Shown here piece after piece: positions 17,785 through 56,491 of a stretch of 64,000 bases of DNA. Within the stretch, counting starts at the first letter, position 1. Each line of letters starts with the position of its first letter. Under the pieces are notes generated by a model. The model searched no databases and was not told the DNA's origin. It saw only the letters and a program-made list of their open reading frames with translations. The DNA comes from a bacterium (GTDB lineage: Bacteria; Hydrothermota; Tepidihabitantia; B3-TA06), in the NCBI GenBank assembly GCA_012517375.1, contig JAAYVC010000037.1:3485-67484 (forward strand), in the 5' to 3' direction. The translations under genes were made by a program, and so were the position numbers.

Positions 17785-17883
17785 GGCACCGACCTGCTCA
17801 ACGATGCACCCTTCTCAGGCTGACAGAAAAAAGAAATCGAGTTGAATTCCATCCCTTGCTTACGTCTCATAACGACCCGATGC

Positions 17884-19212: not shown

Positions 19213-19215
19213 CCT

Positions 19216-20631: not shown

Positions 20632-20678
20632 AATACCCGGTTATTCCCGATGATTTTACAGCCCTCAAATCAGACACC

Positions 20679-22439: not shown

Positions 22440-22454
22440 CTTTCTTCTCCTGAA

Positions 22455-26424: not shown

Positions 26425-27579
26425 TCAACGGAAGGAGAGCATCTTTTCCTTCTTAGCTCTTACCCCTTCTATTCTAATTTCGATGATGTCCATTTTGACA
26501 AGCGAATTAAGATCGCGAGAAATAGTTTTTGCGGTCTTACTTGCATAGGATTCGGCCACTCTGGGGCTGAGTTCGCGAATTTCGGATTTCGGAATGATTT
26601 GTCCCTTATTTGAAATAGCCAAAGCCAATTGTCGTTGCCTTCTAGCCGTTTTCCCCTTCTTATCTCTGAATGCTTCGTGTACATAATCCTTCCATGCGAT
26701 ATCTAAAACCTCTATAGAAACCTTTTGCATCTGTTCGCCCAACCCATCCAGAAACCCTTCTATTGCATACTGGATGAAGGGTATTACGTTTCCGCCGGAT
26801 TTTGAAGCTTGGTCAAGATGTTTGTAATACTCATTTCGGGTTTGATTGTAGTGGTTGCTTAGAAGATGTGCAGCAATTGTCGGTATACCAGCATCTAATA
26901 ATATCTGAAACTCCACCAATCTTGCGGTTCGGCCGTTTCCGTCACCGTAAGGATGTATCCACGCCAGATAAAGATGCGCGAGGACAGCTCTTATCAAAGC
27001 AAATGCGAGTTTGTGCCCCTTGGGCGCCCTGGAACGTTCTTGATTGAGCCAATCACACAGGCGTTTTAACAAGTATTCGCAATCATCTGGGGGCGCAGCA
27101 CGGTAACGGACAAGTTCAACCCCGACAGAATAGTTTCTTATCTTACCAGGAACTATTTGTTCGGGCAATTCTAAATTCTTTAGGACCAGATCATTAAACT
27201 CGTTGATTTTCTTAACAGATAGAAGCCCGCGATTGGTCCCCGTTAATAGTTCAGTTCCAATGATATTGCAGGCTTCAATTATATTGTTTATTTCTTGAGA
27301 AAGATACTCTTTGGAAGGAGGAAGGCTAAGCCTCCCTTCAACAAGTTTTAAGGCATCTTCCTCTGTAAGTGTATTCCCCTCAATAGCAGTTGTAGCTAAA
27401 GCCCCCTTGGCTAGATATAACTCATGCAATCTTTTAGCCGTTGCTGGACGTAGCGGCAAGTTTGCTAGATATTCGCACTTGGCTTGCGCTTCACCAAGCA
27501 TTAACCACAAATCATGCCTAGCTCGGCCGAGGTCGAGTGTAAATGTCAACCACGGATGTGTCTTTTCAAATGTCCGCAC
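26425..27579 (-). CDS. Fic family protein (AMPylation/filamentation domain) with N-terminal inhibitory motif and C-terminal wHTH-like domain
   Basis: 384 aa, GTG start. Fic motif HPYGDGNGRTAR (variant of HPFx[DE]GNGR). Inhibitory-helix motif TAIEGN ([ST]xxxE[GN]). Lower GC and AT-rich flanks (27580-27720). Confidence 0.85.
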   Translation of the reverse strand: MRTFEKTHPWLTFTLDLGRARHDLWLMLGEAQAKCEYLANLPLRPATAKRLHELYLAKGALATTAIEGNTLTEEDALKLVEGRLSLPPSKEYLSQEINNIIEACNIIGTELLTGTNRGLLSVKKINEFNDLVLKNLELPEQIVPGKIRNYSVGVELVRYRAAPPDDCEYLLKRLCDWLNQERSRAPKGHKLAFALIRAVLAHLYLAWIHPYGDGNGRTARLVEFQILLDAGIPTIAAHLLSNHYNQTRNEYYKHLDQASKSGGNVIPFIQYAIEGFLDGLGEQMQKVSIEVLDIAWKDYVHEAFRDKKGKTARRQRQLALAISNKGQIIPKSEIRELSPRVAESYASKTAKTISRDLNSLVKMDIIEIRIEGVRAKKEKMLSFR

Positions 27580-27747
27580 TTATGTCCTCAAAGATGTCCA
27601 ATTGATTTGATTATTATATATATGTAAATATAAAAAGTTACAACAACAAGTAATCTTATGATCCCCTTTTTTTGTCTAACAATATATCCCTATTATAGTC
27701 CTCGTTTTGGGTATTGTCAAGTAACGATTCACTCTCCGCTATTCTCC

Positions 27748-27776
27748 TTGACAACCTCCACCTCCTCCCCTATAAT
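27748..27776 (+). promoter_or_regulatory. Consensus sigma70 promoter TTGACA-17-TATAAT driving the cobalamin riboswitch/TonB receptor
   Basis: TTGACA 27748-27753, 17-bp spacer, TATAAT 27771-27776. Perfect consensus hexamers. Confidence 0.55.
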
Positions 27777-27784
27777 CTTCTAAC

Positions 27785-28015
27785 AACTTGCGTGTAAAGG
27801 CGGAGGCCAGGGAAGGCCGTGAGAATCGGCCGCGGTGCCGCCACTGTGATCTGGAAACTGCGTTTCCTCCGGGGTTTTCATCGAAAAAACTTCCGGGTAG
27901 ATTGAAACAAGGATGCGTCCTCGTTTCTCAAGTCACTATCTGCAGGAAGCAGATGGGAAGGCTGGAGACGCAACGAGACCAGTAAGCCAGGAGACCTATC
28001 CGCCACTATCCCGCA
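27785..28015 (+). ncRNA. Cobalamin (B12) riboswitch
   Basis: Leader contains the conserved cobalamin-riboswitch core elements GGGAAGGCCGTGAGAATC, GGTGCCGCCACTG and a B12-box-like AAGCCAGGAGACC..GCC. Lies 5' of a TonB-dependent receptor gene. Boundaries approximate. Confidence 0.7.
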
Positions 28016-28078
28016 CCACCCATTCCGGGCCAGGATGGGGGTGTGGTTATCCTAACTCTTACAACTTGGAGGTTTACA

Positions 28079-30067
28079 ATGGTCAAGGCCCTTATCATAT
28101 CATTTCTTTTCGGGCAGGCGCCTCTGGCAGATACATCGACAACTGGAGCCGTAAGGCTGCCGGAGGTCGTCGTGACCGCGACGAGGCTCTCGCTGCCTGC
28201 CAATCTATCGCTATGGCCTGTTGAAGTCATAGAAACAGACGATGAACCCGATCTTGCGGCGGTGCTTGAGGAGAAGAGCCCTGCAACGGACGTACGCTCC
28301 TACGGTCTTACGGGCCAGCCGGCCTACTTCTTTCTCGCAGGAGTTACTTCGACGCGCGTGCTCGTTCTCTCGGACGGCGTTCCTATGAACTCGCGTACAA
28401 ACGGCGTCATCGATCTCGGCATGCTTCCTTTGTCCCCGGGTTCACGGATAGAAATCGTGCGCGGTCCGCTTTCAGCCTTATACGGTTCCACAGCGATAGG
28501 CGGCGTGGTGAACATAATTCCCTCCTACGAAAACGGTATCGCTGCAGGACTCGAACTCGATCAGCATCTGGGTCTTTCCGCCGCTGTTGCGACCTCGAAT
28601 CGGATCAAGAACACCGGTCTCAGGCTTGGTGGTTCCTACCTGACGTCTCCAGGTCTCAGAAGCAACGATTCTACAAAAAGATACAGCGCTCATGCGGGTA
28701 TTGAATTCAACCTCAAAAAAGGCTTCATGCTTGGCGGCGGTTTGGAGATAGTATCACGCGATATGGGCGTGCCCGGTCCTCTGCCCGATGTTTCATCCGG
28801 ACTTCCTAGGTTCGGAGACTCCACCTGCACCTCCCTGTACGACCGGGAACTCGACGATCTCTACTCCTTTAATATCAAAGCAGGCTGGAACCCTGTAGCT
28901 AACTTCTCCTCCTTGCTCAAGCTTTACGGACTTTCTCAGATAACCTTTTTCGACTGGAGATACCTTGACTACTCGATGAACGTCATCAGGGAGATTGACG
29001 ATTATCAAGACGCCAAGCTCGGAGCCGACCTGCTTGTATCGGGAAGACTCAACTGGCTCAATCTTGCAGGAGGGGTTAATCTCGAGCACGAGGCCGTAGG
29101 CGTCCTGACCCTTGCACAGGACAGCGCAACCGGCGATACTGTGTCACGTTCGGCGTGGAACGCCGAAGACCTCCACCTGGGCGCCTGGGCTGAAGGCATT
29201 GCGGAGCTGGGAATGTTTGCGCCGACAATTGCCGTAAGACTCGACTATTCGCCACAGTACAACCTGGCGCTTTCTCCTGAAGCCGGACTTGCTGTAACTA
29301 TCATACCTGAGCGCCTTAAACTCTCCGCCGCTTACGGAAGGGCATTCCGCGCGCCGTCTTTCAACGACCTCTACTGGCCTTATATGGGCGACTCCACTCT
29401 GGAACCCGAGCGAGGCCAGTCCGCATCGCTTTCCGCAGATGCACAACCCCTCGATTTTCTTAAACTTAATGTTTCCGGTTTCTGGAAGGATATAAAGGAT
29501 ATGATCTCGTGGTTGCCCGATTCGCAGGGCATCTGGAAGGCGACGAACGTGGACAGGGTTCAGATCTTTGGAACAGACGCAGATGTTAAACTTAGGATCG
29601 CAGACAGCGTAGTTAACGCATCACTCGGTGCGGCGTACAACTTCGCCGCGGAGACTCGCACCATTGTGGTCTATTCGGACTGGATATCGGGCGAGACCCG
29701 CGATTCCACAGTAACGCGGCAAGCTGCATTTATTCCGCCACTTGTGCTTAAGGCTAACCTGGCGCTTCGACTGTGGAAGGGCGGCAGGATAGCGGCCAAC
29801 GCCGCGTGGACCGCCGGACGCGTCAACTACTACTCCGACTACTCCGCCTCCCCGGTTGTCGGTGTACTCACAAAGCGCATAAATCCGTCGCTTAAACTCA
29901 ACGCATCCATCTCGCAGACGCTTTTCAAGATGCTTACGATAGAGGCTGGCGTGCGCAACATCACCGATGACCGCACGCCAGAGCAGTTCGGTACGGAATA
30001 TACCGACCTCAACTATCCCACGCCTTCACGAAACTTGTACGCCAAGCTGTCCATTCAATATCGATAA
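28079..30067 (+). CDS. btuB: TonB-dependent outer-membrane receptor (BtuB-like cobalamin/corrinoid receptor)
   Basis: Start taken at the ATG at 28079 (SD GGAGG 6 nt upstream; signal MVKALIISFLFGQAPLA). The track GTG at 28043 lies inside the riboswitch. TonB box/plug (VVVTATR; plug domain LSDGVPMNSRTNGVIDLGMLP). Long beta-barrel. Riboswitch context. Confidence 0.8.
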   Translation: MVKALIISFLFGQAPLADTSTTGAVRLPEVVVTATRLSLPANLSLWPVEVIETDDEPDLAAVLEEKSPATDVRSYGLTGQPAYFFLAGVTSTRVLVLSDGVPMNSRTNGVIDLGMLPLSPGSRIEIVRGPLSALYGSTAIGGVVNIIPSYENGIAAGLELDQHLGLSAAVATSNRIKNTGLRLGGSYLTSPGLRSNDSTKRYSAHAGIEFNLKKGFMLGGGLEIVSRDMGVPGPLPDVSSGLPRFGDSTCTSLYDRELDDLYSFNIKAGWNPVANFSSLLKLYGLSQITFFDWRYLDYSMNVIREIDDYQDAKLGADLLVSGRLNWLNLAGGVNLEHEAVGVLTLAQDSATGDTVSRSAWNAEDLHLGAWAEGIAELGMFAPTIAVRLDYSPQYNLALSPEAGLAVTIIPERLKLSAAYGRAFRAPSFNDLYWPYMGDSTLEPERGQSASLSADAQPLDFLKLNVSGFWKDIKDMISWLPDSQGIWKATNVDRVQIFGTDADVKLRIADSVVNASLGAAYNFAAETRTIVVYSDWISGETRDSTVTRQAAFIPPLVLKANLALRLWKGGRIAANAAWTAGRVNYYSDYSASPVVGVLTKRINPSLKLNASISQTLFKMLTIEAGVRNITDDRTPEQFGTEYTDLNYPTPSRNLYAKLSIQYR

Positions 30068-30075
30068 GATTTCCT

Positions 30076-30127
30076 GGGGACCCCGTTAACCCTCGGGGTC
30101 CCCACAAAGCTGCGGAGCAGCTTTGTG
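30076..30127 (+). terminator. Two consecutive perfect hairpins immediately after the btuB-like stop
   Basis: GGGGACCCCG-ttaaccct-CGGGGTCCCC (30076-30103) and CACAAAGCTGC-gga-GCAGCTTTGTG (30103-30127). No strong T-tract. Confidence 0.4.
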
Positions 30128-30129
30128 GG

Positions 30130-30203
30130 GTGACAAAAGCTGGTCAAAAGCTGGTCAAAAGTGGGACAAAAGCTGGTCAGAAGTTGGTCAAAACTTGGAC
30201 AAA
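30130..30203. repeat. 11-bp tandem repeat array, ~7 units, consensus TGGTCAAAAGC
   Basis: tgacaaaagc / tggtcaaaagc / tggtcaaaagt / gggacaaaagc / tggtcagaagt / tggtcaaaact / tggacaaa. Period 11 bp (one helical turn). Non-coding context. Confidence 0.7.
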
Positions 30204-30773
30204 TTTCACCCTCAAAAGAGTCAGGATTAATGGAAGAAGGCCAGATTTCGAGAAGTACGCAAGGAAAATCGAAAATGTCATTGCGAGGTTGTTTCGAGCA
30301 ACCGAAGCAATCGCCCAAATGGAATGCAATCCTTTCGGATGCTCTGCAACCTCAGGATAACATGTTGCATGTTACCCACCATCGCCAGAGGAGAGGGGTC
30401 GGAGAAAGAAAAATGTCTTTGGCTGAACTCGCGCTGTTAGCACTCCCGTTCGGCAGGCAACCAAGGTGACGGGATGAAGCTCCGAAGGGTGAGCGGAGGG
30501 AACCATCTCAAGGCAGTATCTGAAAACATGTGGAATCGACTCATGTGTTTTAAAATAGTGCTAGGAGATTGCCACGACTTCCTTTGGAAGTCTCGCAATG
30601 ACTATGGGGAGAACAAACGTAGGGGCCAGCTTTAACGCCTCTGGCGTTCGCTGCGCGTCAGGTGCTTCGCTCCTCCGCCTGTCATTCTGAGGAGCAACGT
30701 AGTTGCGACGTGAGAATCGCCTTTATGATCTGCCAACACCTTTGGTGTTCGGTGCTCAACGAGTCGACCCGCT

Positions 30774-31529
30774 TCATTCGTCAATAAAGTTCCCTTTAGC
30801 TCCGTATTTTTGGAGCCAAGCTAAGGCGGTTTGAATGAACCGAAGACTGAAATCTTTTTCCAACGCAAGATCAAGGGCGTTTATGTTATGAAAACAGGTG
30901 ACAATTGAGTTGCTTGCACTGAAAGTCATAGAAGTTAGTGTCATGAGCGCCAAATGCAATTTGTCTATATCCAAGAAAGGTTCAGAGTAGATAAGATTAT
31001 TCTTTTGGCCCACAAGCATTCTTAGAATTCCTTTCCATGTGGGGTGGGAGCCTAAAGTGGAAAAATGCCCGTATAAGATTCTTTCATCATCGGCGTTTCC
31101 TTTCGTAACCACATTTTCATACTCTTTCAAAAACTTTCGATTATCGCCTGCTGAAAATTCTTTTCCGTTTTTCCATCTTTGAATTGCTGACGTATCTAAG
31201 GCAAATCTTCTAATAAGCAAAGAACTTTCCTGGATGTCCCTTGTAATCATTAACGAAGCCTGGTAAAAGCCTGATATAATCAACCCAAAAGCGACCGAGA
31301 CATCATTATAAGTTCTTACGATTAATCCCAAAACAACGAGCTCGTCGTCCGTTTTGTGTTTCCGATCAATTCCAATCTTCCAAATCCATTCCACGGATTC
31401 ACTCAGAATCTTCAAGTGGTCTTGGCACTCATCATCCGCGCCAGTAGCCATAAGGATTTGCTCGCGCATCTTTTTCTCGGCTTCCAGCATGTTCGCAAGG
31501 TTTTCCGGCAAGGGCAGCACAATACTCAT
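30774..31529 (-). CDS. Hypothetical protein, paralog 1 of a tandem pair (unknown family)
   Basis: 251 aa. ~30% identity to the 31790-32566 product over full length (VVLGLIVRTYNDVSVAFGLIISGFYQ vs ITLLGLGTSLYNDCATAWLLMMQGFYQ; HPTWKGILRML vs HPTYRGIALML). Low GC. Confidence 0.55.
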   Translation of the reverse strand: MSIVLPLPENLANMLEAEKKMREQILMATGADDECQDHLKILSESVEWIWKIGIDRKHKTDDELVVLGLIVRTYNDVSVAFGLIISGFYQASLMITRDIQESSLLIRRFALDTSAIQRWKNGKEFSAGDNRKFLKEYENVVTKGNADDERILYGHFSTLGSHPTWKGILRMLVGQKNNLIYSEPFLDIDKLHLALMTLTSMTFSASNSIVTCFHNINALDLALEKDFSLRFIQTALAWLQKYGAKGNFIDE

Positions 31530-31532
31530 TTC

Positions 31533-31591
31533 TTCCTCCTCTTTTACGGTTCAGTTATAGTATAATTTAGGTTGCGGATGTCAATCCCCCC
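31533..31591 (-). promoter_or_regulatory. Promoter/5'UTR cassette (copy 1): TTGACA-16-TACTAT plus AGGAGG SD, identical to the cassette at 32572-32630
   Basis: 59 bp identical between the two copies. On the minus strand reads GGGGGGATTGACATCCGCAACCTAAATTATACTATAACTGAACCGTAAAAGAGGAGGAA then ATG. Confidence 0.5.
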
Positions 31592-31659
31592 TCCCCCCTC
31601 TCGCAGGAAGGACCTTCATCCAGTCAGCGTGAGATGGCTCCCTTCGTTCGCCCTGCGGA

Positions 31660-31750
31660 CTCACGTCCTTCCGGTCATACGACCGTCAGTCCTCAGAATG
31701 ACTAAGCAAGCCCCCTCCCTCTCCCTTTCTCCCTCCCCCGGAGGGGGAGG
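31660..31750. repeat. Dispersed ~90-bp intergenic repeat (copy A) with internal CTCCCTCCCCCGG/AGGGGGAGG hairpin
   Basis: Near-identical to 33997-34088 (ctcacgtccttccggtcatacgaccgtcagtcctcagaatgactaagcaagccccctccctctccctttctccctccccc..). A related, rearranged fragment lies at 30612-30718. Confidence 0.7.
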
Positions 31751-31789
31751 ATAGCCAACGTAGGGGCCAACCTTCAGGTCGGCCCGCTT

Positions 31790-32566
31790 TTACAAATCGT
31801 GCCCTTCATTTCTTAAAGCTCCAAATGATGGAAAATCCCTGTAGAGTTTCAACCATTTTGAAAGCCAAGAATTGAATTTTGAATAAGCGATGCCAAAGTC
31901 TTCATTGGCGTTTTTTAGGTTTTCTTCCCCGTATGCCTTAACCAGTTGTTTTGTCGCATACGATGAAATCCGGGCCAGCCAAGTTAAACCATTTTGCAGA
32001 GGTATTTGCTCGACATAAGGACCTAGATGTAAGTTTCCGTGAGGATCACCTAACATCAACGCGATTCCGCGATAAGTGGGGTGTACGTTCATATCACACA
32101 GAAGTGCATGGGTGGCTTCGATAGGATGTTCCTTTATTCTTAAGCGGTCTTTGACTTTTCTTAACGCATCGGAAAGTAGCCCCCTCCTAGTTGAATAGAT
32201 TGCTTTTTTCCAAGCTTGGATCGCAGAACGTTCCATTGAAAAAAACTCAAAAAGAATTGAGCATTCAAGCATATGCCGCTGAGGCATGAAAGACATTTGA
32301 TAAAATCCTTGCATCATTAGAAGCCATGCGGTTGCACAATCGTTGTACAAGCTAGTTCCTAGGCCTAAGAGAGTAATATCGTCTTCGTTGTTATGTTTGT
32401 GGATTGTTGATATAGCTTTTATTAAGAGCATTGAATTTTCGATTGAACTGAAATGATCACCAAATTCTTTAATGTGAGAGTATATCATTTCACGGGAACT
32501 TTGCACTAATGGTACTCCGTTGGTCAATACCCTTTCTAGGATATCGGGAATAGCTGGTTTAAGCAT
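31790..32566 (-). CDS. Hypothetical protein, paralog 2 of the tandem pair
   Basis: 258 aa. Paralogous to 30774-31529. Preceded by the identical promoter cassette. Confidence 0.55.
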   Translation of the reverse strand: MLKPAIPDILERVLTNGVPLVQSSREMIYSHIKEFGDHFSSIENSMLLIKAISTIHKHNNEDDITLLGLGTSLYNDCATAWLLMMQGFYQMSFMPQRHMLECSILFEFFSMERSAIQAWKKAIYSTRRGLLSDALRKVKDRLRIKEHPIEATHALLCDMNVHPTYRGIALMLGDPHGNLHLGPYVEQIPLQNGLTWLARISSYATKQLVKAYGEENLKNANEDFGIAYSKFNSWLSKWLKLYRDFPSFGALRNEGHDL

Positions 32567-33810: not shown

Positions 33811-33996
33811 ATCTGGTTCCGCCTTTTTTCAAGCACTTGTTTCTATTATCCATGCGGAGCGGTGGATTGTCAATACCTTTACCTGAAAAATTCGCAGGCC
33901 GACTTTATCCGGGGAACCCCTCCCCCCTTATAGAAAGGGGGGGCCGAAAAAAGTCCCACTTATTATTAAGGGGGATTTCCCATCCTTCATGAGATT

Positions 33997-34088
33997 CTCA
34001 CGTCCTTCCGGTCATACGACCGTCAGTCCTCAGAATGACTAAGCAAGCCCCCTCCCTCTCCCTTTCTCCCTCCCCCGGGGGGAGGGGA
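33997..34088. repeat. Dispersed ~90-bp intergenic repeat (copy B)
   Basis: Matches 31660-31750 almost base-for-base, including the CCCTCCC..GGGGGAGGGG hairpin. Confidence 0.7.
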
Positions 34089-34129
34089 GAAGAATTATTG
34101 AACTAGTTATTGCTGTGACGAAAAGCGGG

Positions 34130-34160
34130 CCCCGTAAAAATACTCCGTGTTTTTACGGGG
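34130..34160 (-). terminator. Hairpin CCCCGTAAAAA-tactccgtg-TTTTTACGGGG overlapping the fusA stop codon
   Basis: 11-bp stem. Followed on the minus strand by CCCGCTTTTCG. Confidence 0.45.
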
Positions 34161-36219
34161 TTAGTATCAGGTACTGGAAGAGTTTTCTGCGCTCCTCCTC
34201 GGGCAGGAGGCTGTAGTGCGAGAAGTGCATGGCGAAGGAGGCGCGGCCCTGGCTTACGGAGCGCAGCGCGGTCGCGTAGCCGAAGCTCTGCGAAAGGGGC
34301 AGAAACGCTTTAACAAGCTTCTGCTCCTTAATGTTCTCTAAAAGCTCAATCTTGCCGCGGCGCGAGCCCAGGTCGGAGATGACGTCGCCCAGATACTCCT
34401 CGGGCGTTATTATCTCGAGGTCCATTATCGGCTCGAGAAGCGCGGGCGACGCCTGCTCGTACGCCTCCCGGAACGCCTGCGATGTCGCGGCCTTGAATGC
34501 GATGTCGGACGCTTCCTCCTCCCTGAACTCGACCTCGGTGACTGTAGCGCGCACGTTCGCGACAGGAAAGCCGAGAAGCTGTCCTGCAGAGAAGGATTCT
34601 GAAAGCGTCGTCTCAATCGCCTGCAGGAACTCGCGCGGAATCTCATCCTTCAGCTTGACCCTCGCGTCCTTTCCACCCTCGTGAGGCTCCACCCTCACCG
34701 TGACTGCGGCATAGTGGCTCTTTGTACCAATGACCTTCGCGAATGTAGCCTTGCGCTCCACCTTCTCCGTTACGGTCTCCCTGTACGATACCTGCGGCTT
34801 GCCCACGCGCACGGGGACCCGGAACTCCTTCTGAATCCGGTCAACGATAATCTCCAGATGAAGCTCGCCCATTCCCGAAACGAGCGTCTGTCCGGTCTCG
34901 GGGTCTATTCGGACGCCGAATGTAGGGTCCTCGAGCTGCATTATCTCTAGCGCGCGGCCGAGCTTTGCCTCGTCCGCTTTCGTGTGCGGTTCAACTGCCT
35001 GGTGGATGACGGGCTCCGGAAAGCGCATTGCCTCGTACACTATTGGGTGCTTCTGGTCAGAAAGCGTTGAGCCTGTGGTTATGTGCCGCAGACCGGACAA
35101 AAGACCTATCTCGCCTGCCTCGAGCTTCGCAACCTCCTCGAAGTGATTGGAGTGGGGGAGAAAGAGCTTTTGCACCCTCGAGCGCTTGCCTCCCGGAAAA
35201 CCGAGTACGGTCTCGCCCTGCTTTACGGTTCCGGAGTAAAGACGAGTGAATGCAAGAGGACCCATATGCTGGTCGTATGCGAGCTTGAACACGAGCGCGG
35301 ATAATGGCTCGTCGGGCAGGGGTTTGAATTTAATCTTTCGCTCCTCGCGCTCAGGATCAGAACCCTCGAGCGCTGCAACGTCCAGCGGCGATGGCAGGTA
35401 ATGGATGACCGCATCCAGGAGCGGCTGAACGCCCTTGTTCTTGAGCGCCGAGCCGCACAAGACGGGCACAATCTTTCCTTCAAGCGTGAGCGAGCGCAGC
35501 GCTGCTCTGAGTGGTCCCGGCTCGCTCTTGCGACCGGCCATGTAATCTTCTAGAATCTCATCCTCCACCTCTGATGCGACGTTCACGAGCCTCTCGCGCC
35601 AGTGCTTTGCAACGGCGACGTGCTCGGCCGGCATCTCTTCCACGATGAACTCCGAACCCTGGGCCTCGTCCCTCCACCTGATAGCCTTCCACTCCACCAG
35701 GTCTATGACGCCCTTGAAGCCCTGCTCCGAGCCGAGCGGTATCTGCACCGGGACGGGGAGCTGGCTGAAGCGAGCCTCCATCATGTCAATGACCCGCTCG
35801 AAGTCGGCGCCCGTGCGGTCCATCTTGTTCACGAATGCGATCCTCGGGATATGGTAGCGGTCCGCCTGATGCCACACGGTTTCAGACTGAGGCTCAACGC
35901 CTCCTACAGCGCAGAAGACGACTACTGCTCCGTCCAGCACCTTGAGCGAGCGCTCAACCTCTATCGTGAAGTCCACATGACCCGGCGTATCGATTACATT
36001 TATCCTTATGTCCTTCCAGTAAACAACTGTCGCAGCTGAAGTTATAGTAATGCCCCTCTCGCGTTCCTGCTGCATCCAGTCCATTGTAGCGGCGCCGTCG
36101 TCGACCTCTCCCATGCGGTGTATCCTCTTAGCGTAAAAAAGAATCCTCTCCGTAGTGGTGGTTTTTCCCGCATCTATATGTGCGGCTATACCTATGTTGC
36201 GAAGCTTCGACAGATCCAT
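34153..36219 (-). CDS. fusA: Elongation factor G (EF-G paralog, not in an str-operon context)
   Basis: 688 aa. G-domain [30 protein letters not shown]. Full five-domain EF-G length. Start codon 7 bp after the stop of the upstream REC-DUF4388 gene, with no SD. Confidence 0.9.
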
Positions 36220-36226
36220 TGTAAGG

Positions 36227-37699
36227 TTAACGGGCGATTTCCTTGGCTAAATCCTTAAGGATTCCTGCGGATTTGATGCGATCCGAAGGCAGGCAGGTCA
36301 TTGTGCGGGTGCCGCGGAATTCGTTGCCCAGCTCTATTTCGGGTTTTGTCGGATCGGTGTTAATTATTACGGCAGGTCCTGAGACGCGCTCCCTCAAGAG
36401 AGCGAGGGCGAACTTGAGATTGGACACCTCCTCCTCGACTGCGGAGTTGGCAAGAAGGATCATCCCCTGGACTTTAGCCACGAATGTCTGCCACAGGGGA
36501 GCAAAGCGCTTGGCTCCTGGCAGGCCGTACATGTTGAACTGGTAAGGGCCTATAATCACCTTCCCGAAGTTCAGTACCTTGTCCTCCGGCCTTTCGGCCT
36601 CTTCCTCGCCCGAAATGGTATGAATGAAGATGTTGCGGGAATCGCGGTCGGTTCCTATCACGACGAGGTTGAATACGTGTGTAACGGGCTGCGGCTTCGT
36701 GTCGAACGACTCTTCTTCCTCTTCCTTCGCCTCGGTCTTCTCATGCGCCGCCTTGCCTGCAAGCTCGACCGCGCCCGATGCGATCATCGATTTCAGCGCC
36801 TCAAGCGTATCGAAATCCGATAAGGGACTCTCAAGAAGCATCTCTCTTACGCTAATCTTTCCGTCCGCCAGTTCGCAAACGACTCGCTCTCCGTCTGTAG
36901 ACGGCTCGCTTCCGGGCTTGAGCGCGGGAACAGCATCGATATCGAGCTCCTGCTTTATCCGCTCCGCCTCGTCAAGCTCCCTTAAGGACTCGAATATCGC
37001 TTCGTCGGTCTGGTTCTCAATGGACGGGATAACGGAAAGGCTCTCCGTAAGCTTGACCTTGAAGGTTCCGTCCGACCATGAAAGGAGCGTAGGAAGCGCC
37101 GCTAGGCCGTGCTTGTTCCTGTAGTTGGCGGCTATCAGCCTCCCGGCCGCGAGATAGAGCGCTCCCTGTTCGCCCGACGATTCAAGGCTCACCTCGCCGG
37201 TCTTCTGGCCGAAGGAAAGCATCTGCAGGAGATCGATGACTCCCAGATCCTCAATCCTTCCAGATGTCGCAACTTCGGACTCCTCTTCGCGCTTGAACGT
37301 CTCGCGGTAGCGGGAATAGCGGTCGAGCAGTATCTCGATTCGCGCAAGAAGCTCGCGGAACTCGAACGGCTTCGTGAGATAGTCATCGGCGCCCAATCTT
37401 AAACCTTTAACCTTGTCCTGAGTATCGGCGAGCGCGGAAAGAAAGATGAAGGGGATGTTGTGCAGGTTTTCGGATGCCCTTATCTTTCCGCACAGGGCGT
37501 AGCCGTCCATGCCCGGCATCATTATATCGGCGATGACTATGTCCGGCGGGTTCGCAATCGCCTTCTCGAGCGCGACGTTCGCACTCGAAGCCACGGTCAC
37601 GTCAAAACTCTGTTCTGAGAGCCTTATCTCCAGAAGATTCAAGAGATGCGGGTCGTCGTCTACGACGAGGACCTTGTGCTGAGGCGGCTTGGCGTTCAC
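36227..37699 (-). CDS. Response regulator receiver + DUF4388 (PATAN-like) domain protein with C-terminal P-loop-less nucleotide-binding-like domain
   Basis: 490 aa. REC ([25 protein letters not shown]). DUF4388 signature ([42 protein letters not shown]). Confidence 0.75.
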
Positions 37700-38082
37700 T
37701 TTCCCTGCTCCTTCAGGTGGCGCTCGAGCACTGCTGCTATGTCCTGGGCCACCTGGCGCGTATCAATAGGTTTTGAGATATAGCCGTCGCAGCCGCATGC
37801 CCTAAGAACCTCCTCGTCGTGCCTGTCCGAGATTGCGGTAACGGCAATGACCGGCACCATCTTCAGCTCTTTATCCTGCTTTAATAACCTCGTCGCTTCG
37901 TATCCGTCCATGCCGGGAAGGTGCATATCCATCAATATAAGGTCAGGATGCATCAAGCGGGCGAGCCTTAGCCCCTCGTCCGCGCTCGAAGCGCACGTTA
38001 CCTTGTGCCCCGCCATCTCCAGAAGCACCCGCAGGAGCTCCTGGTTGCCCTCGTTGTCTTCAACCACGAGAATGGAGCTCAC
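37696..38082 (-). CDS. Single-domain CheY-like response regulator
   Basis: 128 aa. VEDNEGN..DLILMDMHLPGMDGY..ISKP. 4-bp overlaps with both neighbours. Confidence 0.8.
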   Translation of the reverse strand: MSSILVVEDNEGNQELLRVLLEMAGHKVTCASSADEGLRLARLMHPDLILMDMHLPGMDGYEATRLLKQDKELKMVPVIAVTAISDRHDEEVLRACGCDGYISKPIDTRQVAQDIAAVLERHLKEQGK

Positions 38083-39617
38083 GTTTCTTCCTCCGCCTTA
38101 TGACCGAGAAGGTCTCCAATCTTCTTGCGCAGCGAGGTGCGGTCGAGCTGGGCCTTTGTGAATATATCGCGGATGTTGTGGCTAAGGTTCGCCCTGTCTA
38201 TCTCGGTCAGGTCTTTTGCGGTAAAAAGGATGACGGGCAGGCCTTTCGTTACCTCATCCGACTCCATGAGCCTCATTACGTCGAACCCGTCCAGATCGGG
38301 CATCATCAAATCAAGAACAACCAGATCGGGCTTGTCTGCGCGAGCCTTTTTAAGTCCCTCAACCCCGCTTGCCGCTTTGAGGACCTCGTAGCCGTCCAGC
38401 TTCAGCATCTCCTCTATAAGGCTTATATCGGCAGGGTTATCGTCAATAACAAGCACCCGCTTTGTCCGCCGGCCCGATCTGGCTAGCTTTTCAATCTTTG
38501 AAAGAAGCTCTACCCTGGCAACAGGTTTGACCATGTAGTCGACGGCGCCCAGAGAAAGTCCGAAGCTCTTGTCCTCCACGATTGAAACGACGATAATCGG
38601 AATGTCCTTTGTCTCGGGAATCTCCTTCAGCCTGTGCAGAACCCTCCAGCCATCCATCTCCGGAAGCAGAATATCCAGTGTAATGGCCGCTGGTATAAGG
38701 GTCAAAGCCTTGCTCAAGGCCTCCTCTCCTGTTGTTGCGACCTCCACCTTGTAGCCAGCTTCGCCCAGCCACACGGACATTAGGTTGGCTGCGAGGGGAT
38801 TATCCTCAACGACTAGAATAGGTTTATCCGTGACAGGCGGAAGCTTTCCTTTAAGCTCCTCCTTATCCTTTGGATGCGCGGGCTGCTCGAAGCGTACGTA
38901 CGGAAGCTTTACGGTGAATGTAGAACCGGCTCCTGGAGCGCTCTTGACGTCAATGGAGCCTCCCTGTATCTCAAGAAGCTTCTTCACGAGCGCCAGACCG
39001 AGCCCGGTTCCCTCATACCTCCTGGTAGTAGTGCCGTCCACCTGGTGGAAAGCCTCGAAAACCTTCTTTACCTCCTCCTCCTCTATCCCTATCCCGGTAT
39101 CAGATACCGAAACAAGCAATTTATCGCCCACCTTACCTGCCTTAATCACTATGGTTCCCTTTTCAGTGAACTTAACGGCGTTGGAGAGGAGATTATCCAC
39201 TATCTGCGCAAGCTTGCGGCGGTCGGTAAGAATCGTTTCGAGAGGCTCAACCTCGACCTTGAGCTCTATTCCCTTTCGTTCGGAGATAACGTTGTATGCC
39301 TTAAGCACTTCCCAGATGACGGTCGAGATCTCAGTAGGCTCGTTGAATATCTCAAGCATGCCCGCCTCGAGACGGGAGTAGTCAAGGATGTCGTTTACCA
39401 GCCTCAGCAGGTGAGAGCCCGAGGAATGGATTATACTTATGTAGTGGCGCTGCTTTTCATTAAGGTCGCCCACAAGACCGTCCATCAACAGTTCGCTGAA
39501 CCCGATTACGGAGTTCAGGGGCGTGCGCAGCTCGTGACTCATGCTCGCAAGAAACTGCGACTTAAGCCTTGCGGCTTCTATTATTTCCTGCGCCTTCTTG
39601 TTTTCGTCCTGTTTCAA
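38079..39617 (-). CDS. Cytoplasmic hybrid sensor histidine kinase (HisKA-HATPase-REC-REC)
   Basis: 512 aa. H-box SHELRTPLNSV. G-boxes DTGIGI and GTGLGLALV. Two C-terminal receiver domains. No TM segments. Confidence 0.85.
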   Translation of the reverse strand: MKQDENKKAQEIIEAARLKSQFLASMSHELRTPLNSVIGFSELLMDGLVGDLNEKQRHYISIIHSSGSHLLRLVNDILDYSRLEAGMLEIFNEPTEISTVIWEVLKAYNVISERKGIELKVEVEPLETILTDRRKLAQIVDNLLSNAVKFTEKGTIVIKAGKVGDKLLVSVSDTGIGIEEEEVKKVFEAFHQVDGTTTRRYEGTGLGLALVKKLLEIQGGSIDVKSAPGAGSTFTVKLPYVRFEQPAHPKDKEELKGKLPPVTDKPILVVEDNPLAANLMSVWLGEAGYKVEVATTGEEALSKALTLIPAAITLDILLPEMDGWRVLHRLKEIPETKDIPIIVVSIVEDKSFGLSLGAVDYMVKPVARVELLSKIEKLARSGRRTKRVLVIDDNPADISLIEEMLKLDGYEVLKAASGVEGLKKARADKPDLVVLDLMMPDLDGFDVMRLMESDEVTKGLPVILFTAKDLTEIDRANLSHNIRDIFTKAQLDRTSLRKKIGDLLGHKAEEET

Positions 39618-40093
39618 CTGGCCTCCTTGCCGAATGCATACAGCCTGCGTGAAATTAAAGTTTAAGCCGTCTTTTCAAAAAGTCAAGCAGGATTTGCGCT
39701 GTAAGATCAGCAAAAAACGCGGATACGCGAACATCTGCATCCGCACCTTCTGCAGAAATCAAAGGATTTTCTATCGCCTTACGCTGGCCTCCAGATGTCG
39801 CCGCTATCTCATAAACGTGTAGGCATCGCGATAAAATGCGTTTGTCAGCGCGCCATCGCCCGGAACCCTGAAACCGTTGCATGATGATCTAAGGACTTGA
39901 ATATAAGGCCTTAGACTCATTAGTCGTTTATAAAAAGCGAGATTGACCTCCGGGGTCTTGACATACCCTAGTATTTTTCTATAATTAGCTTGATGATTTC
40001 AAAGAGAAGCGCAAGTCCCTTTAAAAGGTTTCAAAATCCATCGATATATGATGACGAGATTAATGGACTTAGCGATAAGCGCATATTAAAGCT

Positions 40094-40202: not shown

Positions 40203-40586
40203 ATGGCTCAACACTCAAAGATATACAAGTGCGAGGAATGCGGAGACATGATCGAGGTCATAAAGGAAGGTTGCGGCAACTACACCTGCCACGGGCAACC
40301 CATGATGCTTCTGGTGGAGAACACCACCGACGCGGCAAAGGAGAAACACGTACCCGTCATCGAGAAGATCGCGTCGGGATACAAGGTCAAGATAGGCAGC
40401 GTGGCACATCCTATGGAAGAAAAACACTTTATAGAATGGGTTGAACTCTCCGACTCCGAGGGCCGTGTTTACCGCAAACAGCTCAGGCCGGGCGATGCGC
40501 CCGAGGCCGAGTTCCTGATGCCTGCCTCGTCCTCCGTCACCGCACGCGAACACTGCAACATTCACGGTCTCTGGAAAGGGGAATAA
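40203..40586 (+). CDS. dfx: Desulfoferrodoxin (2Fe superoxide reductase)
   Basis: 127 aa. N-terminal desulforedoxin-like Cys motif ([19 protein letters not shown]). C-terminal SOR centre residues ([25 protein letters not shown]). Confidence 0.85.
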
Positions 40587-40587
40587 G

Positions 40588-41142
40588 ATGATCTCGAAGA
40601 AGATAGAAGAAGGCTTCAACAAGCAGCTTAACGCCGAGCTTTACGCGGCGTACCTCTATTTCGCCATAGGAGCGTGGTTCGAGGAGCGCAACCTCGACGG
40701 TTTTGCACATTGGATGAAGGCTCAGGCGTTCGAGGAGACGAGCCATGCCATGCGCTTCTACAAGCATGTTCTGAACCGCGGCGGGCATCCCACGTTCTCG
40801 GCTATAGCAAAGCCCGAGGGCGCCTGGAACACGCCTCAAGAGGCGTTTGCTGCAGCATACGAGCACGAAGTAAAGGTCACGAAGATGATAAACGACCTCG
40901 TTGACCTTGCTCAGGCTGAAAAAGACAACGCCGCGCTGCGGGGAATCCTCGACTGGTTCGTAAACGAGCAAATCGAAGAAGAGGAGCAGACCATGGTCGC
41001 CGTGGACCGGCTCAAGATGCTCGGAGACGACAAGCAGGCGCTCTACCTCCTAGACAAGGAGTACGGTGCCCGGCCTCTTGTCACGACCGCTTTCATTATA
41101 AACCCCAACGCTGCCGGCGCTGCAGCCGACGCAGGAGCGTAA
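40588..41142 (+). CDS. ftn: Ferritin (non-haem bacterial ferritin)
   Basis: 184 aa. Ferritin diiron ligands (ELYAAYLY..EETSHAMRFYKHV..EHEVKVT..). Confidence 0.85.
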   Translation: MISKKIEEGFNKQLNAELYAAYLYFAIGAWFEERNLDGFAHWMKAQAFEETSHAMRFYKHVLNRGGHPTFSAIAKPEGAWNTPQEAFAAAYEHEVKVTKMINDLVDLAQAEKDNAALRGILDWFVNEQIEEEEQTMVAVDRLKMLGDDKQALYLLDKEYGARPLVTTAFIINPNAAGAAADAGA

Positions 41143-41143
41143 G

Positions 41144-41638
41144 ATGGGTATCAGCTTCAATGCGGAAGAGATACTCGGAATAGCGGTGCAGATAGAGCGC
41201 AACGGCCAGAAGTTCTACAAACAGGCGGCGTCCAACATCGCTAACGAAGAACACAAAAAGCTTCTTGAGGAGCTTGCCGCGATGGAAGTCGCGCACGAGA
41301 AATATTTTTCAGGGATGCTCAACTCTCTCTCCCCTGACGAGCGCGGCACCAAGGACTACGACCTCGATAACGAAGCCGCAGGATACCTCAAGAACGTGGC
41401 CGACGGCAACGTATTCGACTACCGCAAGGACCCAACAGAACTCCTCAAGGGTATCGAATCCATAGACGATATTCTCAGAACGGCAATCGGCATGGAGAAG
41501 GAATCGGTGGTCTTCTACTCAGGAATCAGGCAGATGGTCCCCGAGCATATGGGCTCGGAGCGCATCGACGAGATAATAAAAGAAGAGCTCTCGCACATCA
41601 GCCTCCTGTCCCGAGAGCTCATAGCCGTAGGGAAGTAA
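41144..41638 (+). CDS. Rubrerythrin-family ferritin-like diiron protein (no rubredoxin domain)
   Basis: 164 aa. Two ExxH motifs (EVAHE, EELSH) in a four-helix ferritin-like pattern. Confidence 0.65.
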   Translation: MGISFNAEEILGIAVQIERNGQKFYKQAASNIANEEHKKLLEELAAMEVAHEKYFSGMLNSLSPDERGTKDYDLDNEAAGYLKNVADGNVFDYRKDPTELLKGIESIDDILRTAIGMEKESVVFYSGIRQMVPEHMGSERIDEIIKEELSHISLLSRELIAVGK

Positions 41639-41725
41639 CGAGGCCAGAATGAAGCCTCGCTACGACCTGCATGAAAGAGAAAGGGAGGAGCACCCAGGCT
41701 CCTCCCCCTCATCCGGGGGCAACGA

Positions 41726-43228
41726 GTGAAACTAAGTCCCAAGACGAGAGTGGGCGAACTTCTTGACGCCTACCCGTTTCTCCTCGACTTCCTGCCTGAC
41801 TATAATAAACATTTTGAGAAGCTCCTTAACCCGGTGGCGCGCGCGACCATTGCGAAGGTCGCCACTCTGGAGATGGCCGCCCAGAACAACAATCTCGATT
41901 TGAAAAGGTTTCTTGAGGATTTAAGAACAGCGATACTCGAAAACACGGGCGAAGAGCTTGTAATCATGTCCGACGAAGAGCTGAGAGCGAGAGCAAAAAA
42001 GATAAAGTCCATTCTTGCCGAACTGCACGAGAAGGGCCCATCCTCACGAGAGTCGCTTGAGCGCCGTTTCGCGGAAGAGATAAAGGACATAACCCCGGGC
42101 GAGATTGGCGAGATAGAGCAGGAGCTCGTACGGGAAGGAATGACGCCCGAAGATATAACCTCCATGTGCGACCTTCACGTTGCCGTGATGCGCTCCGGTC
42201 TTGAATCGTCACCCGACATGCCTGCCGGACACCCCGTGCATACGGCAAGGCTTGAAAACCGCGAGTTCGAAAAGCTTGCAAGGACGCTCTCCGGGCTTGC
42301 AAGGGAACTGGGCAAGGCATCGCTTAAAGAAAAAGCGCCCGCGCTCGAAAAGACGCTTTCTTCGCTCAGCCTTGTTGAAAAGCACTACCTGAGGAAGGAG
42401 CACGAGCTGTTCCCGCGCCTTGAGAAACACGGCGTGACAGCTCCTCCTCAAGTGATGTGGGCCGTTCACGACCAGGTGCGCGCGCTATTAAAAGAAACGA
42501 AGGGATTGCTCGAAAAAACCAGTGTCAAAGAGTTTTCCGAGAAAGCGAGAAAACTTTCCGCAACAGTGCTCGATATGATATATAAAGAGGAGCAGATTCT
42601 TTTCCCTATGGCGCTTGAGCACCTGTCGTCCCAGGAGTGGCTCGAGATAAAGAGGGGGGAGGATGAGATCGGCTACAGCCTTGTAACCCCGGGCGCGGAT
42701 TGGAATCCTCAAACTTCCCCTGAGCCCGGCGCTCAAGACGGCTCAATAAAAAAAGATCTGGGAGAACAAGGAGAAACAATGGAGCTTAACGAGTTTGCAG
42801 AAAATCTCAAGAAAAATGCGAGACTGCCGCTCAGCGTCGGCGGTCTTACGCTTGAACAGATAGACCTCATGCTCAAAAATCTTCCCGTTGACATATCGTT
42901 CGTCGATGAGCACGACGAGCTTCGCTACTACTCCGACACGCCCGAACGCATCTTCACGCGCACGCCCGGAGTCATAGGCCGCAAGGTGCAAAACTGCCAT
43001 CCGCCCAAGAGCGTGCACGTGGTTCAAAAGATTATAGACGAATTCCGCAAGGGGACAAAAGATGTCGCCGAGTTCTGGATTGAGCTTTCAGGCAAGTTCA
43101 TCCATATACGCTACTTCGCAATGAGGGACAGTAATGGTCGCTACCGCGGCACCCTGGAGGTGTCGCAGGACGTGACAGGAATCCGCAAACTCGAGGGACA
43201 GAAAAGGCTTCTGGATTGGAAGGAATAG
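41726..43228 (+). CDS. DUF1858 / hemerythrin-like (HHE cation-binding) / PAS-like domain protein (DUF438 family)
   Basis: 500 aa. N-terminal DUF1858-like (MKLSPKTRVGELLDAYPFLLDFLPDYN). Central hemerythrin-like HxxxE/HxxxH-rich helices. C-terminal PAS-like region repeated in the next ORF. Confidence 0.6.
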   Translation: MKLSPKTRVGELLDAYPFLLDFLPDYNKHFEKLLNPVARATIAKVATLEMAAQNNNLDLKRFLEDLRTAILENTGEELVIMSDEELRARAKKIKSILAELHEKGPSSRESLERRFAEEIKDITPGEIGEIEQELVREGMTPEDITSMCDLHVAVMRSGLESSPDMPAGHPVHTARLENREFEKLARTLSGLARELGKASLKEKAPALEKTLSSLSLVEKHYLRKEHELFPRLEKHGVTAPPQVMWAVHDQVRALLKETKGLLEKTSVKEFSEKARKLSATVLDMIYKEEQILFPMALEHLSSQEWLEIKRGEDEIGYSLVTPGADWNPQTSPEPGAQDGSIKKDLGEQGETMELNEFAENLKKNARLPLSVGGLTLEQIDLMLKNLPVDISFVDEHDELRYYSDTPERIFTRTPGVIGRKVQNCHPPKSVHVVQKIIDEFRKGTKDVAEFWIELSGKFIHIRYFAMRDSNGRYRGTLEVSQDVTGIRKLEGQKRLLDWKE

Positions 43229-43680
43229 TGGACAAAGCCGCCTTAGACCTTGGTTCGGGAACGCTCACTCTCGAAGAGCTGAGAATGATGCTTCGCTCCC
43301 TGCCCCTCAATATCGACTACGTCGATGAGAATGACGCCTTTCGCTACTATTCCAACGGCGACAGGCTATTCAAGCTATCGACAGACGAGCTCGGCAAGAA
43401 CCTTGAGGAGTGTCATTCAGAAAAATCAATGCCAATGGTCAAGGAGATTACAGGCGCGTTCAGGAAAGGAAGAAACGAACCCTACAGGTTCGTTAACTTA
43501 AAAGAAGGCCGCTGGCTGGAAGTGCGGTATATCCCTTTACGTGATGAAAAGGGAGACTATAAAGGAATCCTTGAACTCTCTCAGGATATCACCGAGGCCT
43601 GCAACATCAAGACCCCGTATGTCCCGCCGGAGTTCGGGGAGCTCCTTGAGCAGTCAAGGAGGAACAATGAACACCCGTAA
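43216..43680 (+). CDS. PAS-like domain protein (paralog of the C-terminus of the upstream DUF438 protein)
   Basis: 154 aa. LTLEELRMMLRSLPLNIDYVDENDAFRYYS.. parallels LTLEQIDLMLKNLPVDISFVDEHDELRYYS.. of the preceding gene. 13-bp overlap. Confidence 0.5.
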   Translation: MEGIVDKAALDLGSGTLTLEELRMMLRSLPLNIDYVDENDAFRYYSNGDRLFKLSTDELGKNLEECHSEKSMPMVKEITGAFRKGRNEPYRFVNLKEGRWLEVRYIPLRDEKGDYKGILELSQDITEACNIKTPYVPPEFGELLEQSRRNNEHP

Positions 43681-53392: not shown

Positions 53393-54006
53393 GCACACCC
53401 TTAAAGGAGAGGGGCTGGTTCTCTATAGTCTTCATGTTCAGCCTTACCGCTATAGCGAGCGCAATCCTCATCATGCTCGCCGGCCTCACCAGGCAAAGGG
53501 TCGATGCAAACCAGAAGCTTTCCTTTGAGCGGTCGGTGCTGGAAGCTGTCGGCGAGACGGTTCCTAAGGGAGCATCCGGAATCGAGGTTAACAAGATTTA
53601 CAACTTACGCGTTAAAGATACCGTGGTCGCTAAAGACACATTCCTCGTGTATCATGCCAGCGATTCAACACTTTCATACATCATTCCGCTCTCAGGCGCA
53701 GGTTTCTGGGACAAGATTTCGGGCGTCATCGCGCTCGCCCCGGACAGGAGAACGGTTATCGGCATCTCCTTCTACCAGCAGAACGAAACGCCCGGACTGG
53801 GCGGCGAAATAATGAAGCCCTATTTCAAGAACCAGTTCAAGGGGAAGAAGCTTGCGGAAAGCGGAATCCCTATCGAGCTAAGACCGGTCGGAGCGCCTCT
53901 GGACTCAAGCTCGGTTGAAGCTATAACGGGCGCCACGCAAACCTCCACCAGACTCATGAAGTTCGTCAACGCAAGGCTCGACGCCTGGAGAAGGAGCGCA
54001 AAGTGA
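53389..54006 (+). CDS. nqrC: NqrC/RnfG-family FMN-binding subunit
   Basis: 205 aa. N-terminal TM. FMN-attachment motif ITGATQTS. Confidence 0.8.
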   Translation: MSTPLKERGWFSIVFMFSLTAIASAILIMLAGLTRQRVDANQKLSFERSVLEAVGETVPKGASGIEVNKIYNLRVKDTVVAKDTFLVYHASDSTLSYIIPLSGAGFWDKISGVIALAPDRRTVIGISFYQQNETPGLGGEIMKPYFKNQFKGKKLAESGIPIELRPVGAPLDSSSVEAITGATQTSTRLMKFVNARLDAWRRSAK

Positions 54007-55243: not shown

Positions 55244-55348
55244 TACAAATGCCTCTTTTCGTCGAAGGGAAGAAAACCGGAGTTATACTTGGTAGCCGGG
55301 AAAGACGCAGCACCCTTGACCTTTTGCGCTTCAGAGACTTCCTAATCC

Positions 55349-56482: not shown

Positions 56483-56491
56483 GTTGGAGAG

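Follow-up and report, generated by a model that had tools for sequence, protein, structure and literature searches.

The 64,000-nucleotide (nt) stretch of contig JAAYVC010000037.1 analysed here (hereafter, the window) contains four co-directional open reading frames (ORFs), all on the minus strand, that encode, in this order, a hybrid histidine kinase (HK), a stand-alone receiver (REC) protein, a regulator combining REC, PATAN (DUF4388) and Ras-like domains, and the elongation factor EF-G (Table 1; coordinates from the ORF table and the translations). The HK and REC genes, and likewise the REC and regulator genes, share 4-bp start/stop overlaps (38079-38082 and 37696-37699, respectively), and the ATG of the EF-G gene follows the TAA of the regulator gene after a short spacer. 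The first three genes are preceded by Shine-Dalgarno (SD) sequences (AAGGAGG, GGAGG and AAGGAG, respectively); an SD match of at least 5 nt was found for 23 of the 50 ORFs of the window, and the EF-G gene is among those without one. This layout, namely co-directional genes, two 4-bp overlaps, a 7-bp gap and an EF-G gene without an SD, had been described in an earlier reading of the letters (hereafter, the sequence-only reading), and it is borne out by the ORF table, the translations and the sequence of the junctions. The arrangement is not a chance one because it recurs in every related locus recovered.

When homologues of the EF-G were searched for, a tight group was recovered at 72-100% identity, after which identity fell to 55%; the members of the tight group are labelled candidate division WOR-3, Candidatus Stahlbacteria, TA06 B3_TA06 or plain "bacterium". 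About nine distinct lineages of uncultured bacteria of the WOR-3/Stahliibacteriota type share the order HK-REC-PATAN-EF-G. In every readable locus (L001-L005 and L089-L093), the same four genes stand in the same order between unrelated flanks, and of ten JGI metagenome loci detected with a profile of the C-terminal domain of the regulator, nine are complete and have the four-gene order, the tenth being cut by the end of its contig. Several additional EF-G and regulator clusters have longest contigs of identical length and were therefore also placed on common contigs. The spacer between regulator and EF-G genes is 5-7 nt in the four close loci that were read (the window, L093, L001 and L004), and the EF-G gene lacks an SD in all five loci with the junction read, its three operon mates having strong ones. 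A distant relative (L094) retains the order, with the regulator 38%, the kinase 56% and the EF-G 58% identical to those of the window; an extra GAF kinase is inserted there, and the regulator and EF-G genes overlap by 20 nt. In an equally distant locus (L095), the signalling genes are present and EF-G is absent. Because the order persists as far as L094 while the flanks differ, the linkage is old and selectively maintained, and the signalling module is able to exist without EF-G. Conservation of the HK-RR-PATAN-fusA synteny in relatives, on which the sequence-only reading had staked its proposal, is thus found in L001-L005, L089-L093, the metagenome loci and L094.

To characterize the EF-G encoded by this cassette, we aligned 318 EF-Gs, comprising the 16 of the cassette clade (L094 included), 141 other WOR-3 EF-Gs and str-operon EF-Gs of many phyla. 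In 16 of the 16 cassette-clade EF-Gs, the tip of domain IV is rebuilt in both of its loops; in 295 of the 302 others, it is canonical. In loop 1, the second of two universal glycines is replaced by Thr or Gln in the clade of the window, and in L094 the first is replaced by Ala. In loop 2 (E. coli numbering), His583 is replaced by Arg, Ser587 by Ala and Glu589 by Asp, Ser588 being kept. Positions conserved in at least 95% of the 295 canonical EF-Gs were then scored for retention in the cassette type, which keeps 96 of 98 in the G domain, 18 of 19 in domain II, 25 of 25 in domain III and 20 of 20 in domain V, and only 13 of 21 in domain IV. The eight lost domain IV positions (window numbering) are Q496, G499, G501, G563, H566 (to Arg), D569 and S570, each lost in all 16 cassette-clade members, and G538; all of them lie within or close to the tip loops. 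Since the replacement residues are conserved inside the clade (Arg in 15/16, Ala in 15/16), the tip is a new, constrained one and not a decayed one. There is a perfect correlation between belonging to the cassette clade and having the rebuilt tip, and other WOR-3 EF-Gs, none of which, among those checked, is located in a str operon, retain the canonical tip. Three more EF-Gs (P0055, P0059 and P0377) are independently tip-divergent, and P0377, which comes from WOR-3, is found without the signalling cassette.

The residues changed at this tip have published roles. In E. coli EF-G, Q507 and H583 touch the tRNA during translocation, and their substitution results in slower translocation and more -1 frameshifting, with little effect on the GTPase (PMC6924986); the H583K, S588P and E589A variants are dominant-toxic and block movement of the mRNA (PMC4666400). 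The two glycines of loop 1 are universal and permit insertion into the decoding centre; in recycling-only factors, the second is Asp (EF-G2mt) or the first is Ala (Borrelia EF-G2), and ribosome disassembly is negligibly affected by mutations in loop 1 (PMC8203779). Given these roles, the cassette EF-G looks like a poor translocase, that is, by analogy, a factor that would bind the ribosome and hydrolyse GTP with inefficient translocation.

Table 1 Features of the HK-REC-PATAN-EF-G cassette in window coordinates.
Feature	Coordinates	Strand	Details
Hybrid HK gene	39617..38079	-	512 aa, start TTG
Stand-alone REC gene	38082..37696	-	128 aa, start GTG
REC-PATAN-Ras-like regulator gene	37699..36227	-	490 aa, start GTG
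EF-G gene	36219..34153	-	688 aa, start ATG
Spacer 'ccttaca', 7 nt, without SD	36220..36226	-	Between regulator TAA (36229-36227) and EF-G ATG
AAGGAGG SD of kinase gene	39622..39628	-	4 nt ahead of TTG start; read from sequence
Candidate operon promoter TTGACT-16-TAAACT	39659..39686	-	Upstream of kinase gene; 9/12 consensus matches, consensus scan only
Hairpin over EF-G stop codon, arms ~11-14 nt, then CCCGCUUUUCG	34130..34160	-	Inverted repeat and folding
EF-G domain IV loop 1, rebuilt	34705..34740	-	Alignment; canonical [RK]Q[ST]GG[RK]GQ[YF]GH
EF-G domain IV loop 2, rebuilt	34504..34533	-	Alignment; canonical DGS[YF]H.VDSSE
Regulator receiver domain, residues 10-122	37334..37672	-	Pfam; acidic pocket, D58 and K110 invariant in alignment
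Regulator PATAN (DUF4388) domain, residues 146-245	36965..37264	-	PF14332, 59.5 bits (cut-off 25)
Regulator small beta-3-helix-beta module, residues 257-314	36758..36931	-	AlphaFold2 secondary structure and alignment
Regulator Ras-like small-GTPase fold, residues 341-489	36233..36679	-	AlphaFold2 and Foldseek; nucleotide-binding site decayed
Regulator degenerate Walker A 'GTDRDSRN', residues 349-356	36632..36655	-	Alignment; distant homologues 'GIARSGKS' at same columns

The operon EF-G has the full EF-G domain set (Pfam), and its G1-G4 motifs are intact, including RGITI, DTPGH (with the catalytic His) and NKMD. In comparisons with NCBIfam models, it scores above the cut-off of the EF-G equivalog TIGR00484 (863.5 vs. 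659.4 bits) and below those of two EF-G2 models (402 vs. 890 for NF009377 and 418 vs. 1000 for NF058620) and of a ribosomal-protection model (375 vs. 775 for NF012153). Against solved structures, it scores 739 bits with EF-G of T. thermophilus and 712 bits with that of E. coli, compared to 317 bits for T. thermophilus EF-G-2 and 500-517 bits for mitochondrial factors. Identity as an EF-G2 was rejected, given scores far under the cut-offs, an intact RGITI and canonical domains I-III; a spirochaete/mitochondrial-type factor was rejected on the 739 vs. 500-517 bits, and a Tet(M)-type ribosomal protection protein on the NF012153 score. The protein is 52-56% identical to other WOR-3 EF-Gs. Taken together, the scores and the neighbour-joining (NJ) trees, in which the cassette clade is monophyletic, place it, as judged from sequence, with the EFG I type in a separate, cassette-linked clade, which answers the question of EF-G1, EF-G2 or spirochaete-type raised in the sequence-only reading. 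The NJ tree places this clade as the sister group of the 141 canonical WOR-3 EF-Gs taken together, not inside them, a position compatible either with an early duplication or with long-branch attraction of a fast-evolving orthologue.

Neither the window nor 416 kb of WOR-3-type loci contains a gene for S12, S7 or EF-Tu, so that the location of this EF-G outside the str operon, as claimed in the sequence-only reading, is confirmed. Of 80 EF-G loci sampled from other genomes, 74 have S7 encoded directly upstream of EF-G, in most cases along with S12. The further step, from this context to paralogy, fails, since none of the WOR-3 EF-Gs examined is in a str operon; their genes are found behind RsmF (L015, L018), behind Dxr, RseP and an unknown gene (L006-8, L107) or behind an FAD oxidase (L108); the context is therefore uninformative in this respect. 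Paralogy gains indirect support from the clade-specific rebuilding of the domain IV tip instead. The EF-G genes of L007, L008, L015 and L018, for which the start regions were read, likewise have no SD. In the survey of 305 genomes by Margus et al., only two single-EFG genomes had the gene outside the str operon, and single EFG genes were always EFG I (PMC3150367). The displacement of fusA from the str operon at the level of a phylum is notable by itself.

With regard to copy number, two protein searches, each considered as its top 120 matches, listed about 140 canonical-tip WOR-3 EF-G clusters. Comparison of accession blocks and assembly identifiers for 30 of these clusters and six cassette-bearing metagenome-assembled genomes (MAGs), a small sample, gave no match that would indicate a second fusA in the same genome. 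A profile search of genome contigs with the EF-G alignment returned at least 600 matches to the universal motifs, with no close relatives among the matches listed. As a partner, the nearest canonical relative, the P0014-type EF-G, is unlikely: it occurs in different assemblies, with a G+C content of 36-41% vs. 48-55% in most cassette loci, and its loci are probably from different organisms than the cassette. A 435-aa protein encoded upstream of the P0016-type EF-G was considered as a relative of the PATAN regulator and proved unrelated, with no Pfam family. In L006/L007 (10433-10603), about 2.3 kb downstream of the intact EF-G gene, there is a 57-aa stretch that is 47% identical to the C-terminus of EF-G (residues 630-685) and may, from its sequence, be a remnant of a duplicated EF-G in another WOR-3 lineage.

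In the regulator, Pfam recognizes REC, DUF4388 and, weakly, Arf (E = 2e-4); the protein is identical to NCBI NLI97924.1. An AlphaFold2 model built on a 34-sequence alignment (mean predicted local distance difference test score, pLDDT, 81) has four folded modules, namely a receiver, PATAN, a small beta-3-helix-beta module and an alpha/beta domain, the last of which is preceded by a disordered linker of variable length. The beta-3-helix-beta module, for which no Pfam match was found, is shared by the cassette clade and missing from distant homologues in the alignment; in the model, it is possibly winged-helix-like. The alpha/beta domain modelled alone (pLDDT 88, predicted template modelling score 0.84) has Rab, Arl and Rheb as its top Foldseek matches in PDB, with probability 1.0 and TM scores of 0.70-0.77. 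By the marks of a small GTPase, the G-domain fold is present, whereas the Walker A motif GxxxxGK[ST] and NKxD are absent, 'ILLANS' being read at the position expected for the latter; a 16-residue near-invariant segment of the cassette-clade domain is read, tentatively, as switch-II-like. Because the fold matches GTPases while the Walker A motif is decayed, the tail of the regulator is a Ras-like pseudo-GTPase with a decayed GTP-binding loop. The P-loop-less, nucleotide-binding-like tail that had been proposed for this PATAN regulator is thereby substantiated.

The kinase consists of HisKA, HATPase_c and two REC domains (Pfam), with 'SHELRTPLN' as the H-box. Thus, of the parts of a hybrid-kinase phosphorelay, HisKA with the H-box His, HATPase_c and the receivers are present; an N-terminal sensor or input domain is absent, HisKA starting at residue 19, and no Hpt domain was found by Pfam in any of the four operon proteins. 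The kinase is 68-84% identical in orthologous cassettes and 54-56% identical in L094 and L095, the operons of which contain an additional GAF(-PAS) kinase. The stand-alone receiver is CheY-like (Pfam Response_reg, 89 bits). Ahead of the cassette in the 80%-identical relative L093, on the opposite strand (1-7359), are encoded a 1744-aa GAF/PAS kinase, a sigma-54 activator and a second REC-PATAN protein, a set that is a possible source of the sensory input missing from the sensor-less cassette kinase.

At the 3' end of the cassette, the hairpin over the EF-G stop codon (-16.1 kcal/mol, z = -2.2 upon folding) is a possible operon terminator; a hairpin of this kind also follows the EF-G gene in L093 and is not conserved in other relatives. 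An Rfam search of the operon region gave no match. The intergenic region between the EF-G and radical-SAM genes (33915-34095) contains two G/C-rich polypurine-polypyrimidine palindromes, e.g. TCTCCCTCCCCCGGGGGGAGGGGA at 34065-34088.

The presence of dnaA (3476-4798), dnaN (5030-6133) and tRNA-Leu(CAA) (6246-6329) in the 3476-6329 region puts the window at or near the chromosomal replication origin, with the EF-G cassette located about 30 kb from dnaA on the opposite strand. Located at 10456-11970 is the gene of a 504-aa sigma-70 family protein in which regions 1.2 and 2 are separated by a long insertion and which has a weak PDZ-like match. Four consecutive radical-SAM genes (455, 452, 442 and 471 aa), followed by genes for two 586-aa LVIVD-repeat proteins, occupy 14856-24215 on the minus strand and may form a peptide- or cofactor-modification cluster. 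The low-GC region 26425-32566 (0.40-0.47 vs. a window mean of 0.525) contains a Fic-domain gene and two tandem, 28%-identical paralogues with no assigned function (30774-31529 and 31790-32566), which have near-identical upstream sequences; in L093, the gene next downstream of EF-G encodes a homologue of the first paralogue. On the plus strand, in divergent orientation to the kinase gene, 40203-43680 encodes desulfoferrodoxin, a ferritin-like protein, rubrerythrin, a DUF1858-DUF438-hemerythrin-PAS protein and a PAS protein; this oxidative-stress/oxygen-sensing cluster is specific to the species of the window (L089-92) and is not kept in L093. Finally, the 52373-61093 region comprises an Nqr/Rnf-type operon (52373-56482) and, after it, genes for two arylsulfotransferase-like proteins, one of which (59462-61093) has a type IX secretion sorting tail, suggesting an FCB-like secretion system in the host organism.

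On balance, we favour, with moderate confidence, the reading that the cassette encodes a specialised, translocation-impaired EF-G, perhaps one for ribosome recycling or a brake, that is made together with the phosphorelay module. Because the EF-G start lies 5-7 nt past the regulator stop, or overlaps it, and has no ribosome-binding site, ribosomes ending the regulator gene would re-initiate on the EF-G gene, and the two proteins would be made together. The altered factor, still active as a ribosome-bound GTPase and translocating poorly, would serve either to recycle or split ribosomes, like the EF-G2 of mitochondria and that of Borrelia, or, as a slow competitor, to brake elongation; the phosphorelay would be linked to its level or activity, and a second, canonical fusA is predicted elsewhere in the genome. 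Conceivably, the phosphorylated REC-PATAN-pseudoGTPase partners or gates the co-translated, translocation-defective EF-G as the latter competes for the factor-binding site, which would make a signal-controlled brake or a ribosome-splitting switch; in this specific form, the proposal is unlikely.

Several observations weigh against a specialised factor, and most of them favour the possibility that this is the sole housekeeping EF-G, encoded by a fusA that moved out of the str operon in the ancestor of WOR-3 and, in this subclade, came to lie downstream of a signalling operon, with a domain IV that co-evolved with the ribosome in a lineage-specific way and a protein that still translocates and recycles. 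The score over the TIGR00484 cut-off with intact GTPase motifs, the location of all examined WOR-3 EF-Gs outside str operons, the lack of a partner for the six cassette-bearing MAGs among the matches listed and the EFG I type of single EFG genes (PMC3150367) are all in line with it. Moreover, the str-operon EF-Gs of MAGs from Cytophagia (L024, ~5156-7688), Oligoflexia (L042, 10001-12016) and Fibrobacterota (L046, 10001-12061) are independently devoid of the His583 equivalent and of a canonical loop 2; because such tip-divergent EF-Gs sit inside str operons, a changed tip alone is no proof of a secondary role. Codon bias is uninformative, the effective number of codons of the EF-G gene (45.1, rank 7 of 42) being like that of its operon mates, with no consistent signal in other loci, and no recognised DNA-binding output domain was found by Pfam in the three signalling proteins. 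Yet, under a sole EF-G, the losses fall on the very residues whose mutation cripples translocation and maintenance of the reading frame, residues that the sister WOR-3 lineages keep, and the NJ tree puts the cassette clade next to, not within, the canonical EF-Gs of those lineages. An essential, abundant factor expressed without an SD, 5-7 nt behind the gene of a low-abundance regulator, would be an odd design, and between L001 and L004, EF-G is less conserved than AccC (77% vs. 85% identity). We thus consider a sole housekeeping EF-G possible, if doubtful.

Two other explanations dispense, in different ways, with a signal-coupled translation factor. If the adjacency were historical hitch-hiking with no functional link, EF-G being expressed by read-through or from an internal promoter, the lack of an output domain joining the phosphorelay to gene expression and the self-sufficient signalling module of L095 would need no comment; but the junction, in the lineages in which it was read, stays at 5-7 nt or overlapping across EF-G identities from 84% down to 58%, with both flanks turning over, and the cassette clade and the rebuilt tip correlate perfectly, which renders hitch-hiking very improbable. 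Least probable of all is that the EF-G-like protein is an effector recruited to a PATAN/small-GTPase polarity or motility module, where it would work alongside the pseudo-GTPase domain and not in bulk translation. As output modules, PATAN domains bind to the motor of type IV pili, with MglA/MglB homologues often encoded nearby (bioRxiv 10.1101/2021.06.11.447907), a 28%-identical regulator homologue adjoins a PilA pilin gene in L096, and the regulator and EF-G genes are tightly coupled. However, apart from the tip of domain IV, the ribosome- and GTP-related features of the EF-G are conserved at the canonical level, as would be expected of a factor acting on the ribosome; neither pilus nor motility genes were found in the 64-kb window; and L095 has the signalling genes without EF-G.

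The specialised EF-G that we favour would differ from each of the systems that it resembles. It shares with canonical EF-G (FusA, EFG I) the five-domain architecture, intact G1-G4 motifs and a score above the equivalog cut-off, but lies outside rpsL-rpsG-fusA-tuf, always as the distal gene of a signalling operon, and has lost 8 of 21 near-invariant domain IV positions. Like EF-G2mt and Borrelia burgdorferi EF-G2 (spdEFG2), for which an inability to enter the decoding centre has been proposed (PMC8203779), it has one universal loop-1 glycine replaced with the rest of the factor retained: in L094, this is the first Gly, replaced by Ala as in Borrelia EF-G2, and in the clade of the window the second, the position that is Asp in EF-G2mt. 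Unlike these recycling-only paralogues, which have no known signalling-operon linkage, the cassette EF-G is, by sequence, much nearer to EFG I than to the mitochondrial forms (739 vs. 500-517 bits), and loop 2 is rebuilt as well. If it is a paralogue, it would be, like EFG II/EF-G2 (T. thermophilus EF-G-2 and those of Bacteroides and mycobacteria), a second, specialised EF-G-family GTPase outside the str operon; however, EFG II has divergent domains I-III, a relaxed RGITI and a conserved domain IV (PMC3150367), and the divergence pattern here is the reverse, with only the decoding-centre tip changed. A precedent for division of labour within EFG I is provided by EF-G1A and EF-G1B of Pseudomonas aeruginosa, two EFG I copies with distinct functions, one of them outside the str operon, for which the abstract of the study mentions no linkage to a signalling operon (PMC3832671).

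On the signalling side, PatA-type PATAN regulators (PixG, PixE, PatA) and MglA/MglB-associated proteins are similar in the fusion of PATAN with a receiver, the separate CheY-like receiver in the operon and the association with a Ras-like GTPase. In the cassette, however, the order is REC-PATAN, not PATAN-REC, the GTPase is fused and has lost the Walker A lysine, there are no pilus genes nearby, and EF-G is encoded downstream. Streptomyces conservons (Cvn) combine a histidine-kinase-like sensor and a small GTPase and so resemble the cassette in having HK and a Ras-like GTPase in one operon; in contrast to them, the cassette has no Roadblock or DUF742 partners, its GTPase is degenerate and fused to REC-PATAN, and its operon includes EF-G.

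As far as could be found in the literature, this is the only EF-G that belongs obligatorily to a signalling operon. Specialised EF-G paralogues attract current interest, exemplified by EF-G2mt and Borrelia EF-G2 (recycling), Bacteroides EF-G2 (starvation) and Pseudomonas EF-G1A/1B. If the cassette EF-G is a paralogue, it would be a natural factor with a His583-to-Arg change and loss of a loop-1 Gly, suited to separating the recycling and translocation roles of the tip residues, and the cassette would offer a candidate path by which a phosphorelay reaches the ribosome. If a signal-controlled EF-G brake or splitting switch proved true, it would represent a regulatory principle that is undescribed for bacterial elongation factors. 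If, conversely, this is the sole EF-G, it would be equally informative, as a bacterial lineage would then be translating with a tip that is dominant-toxic in E. coli.

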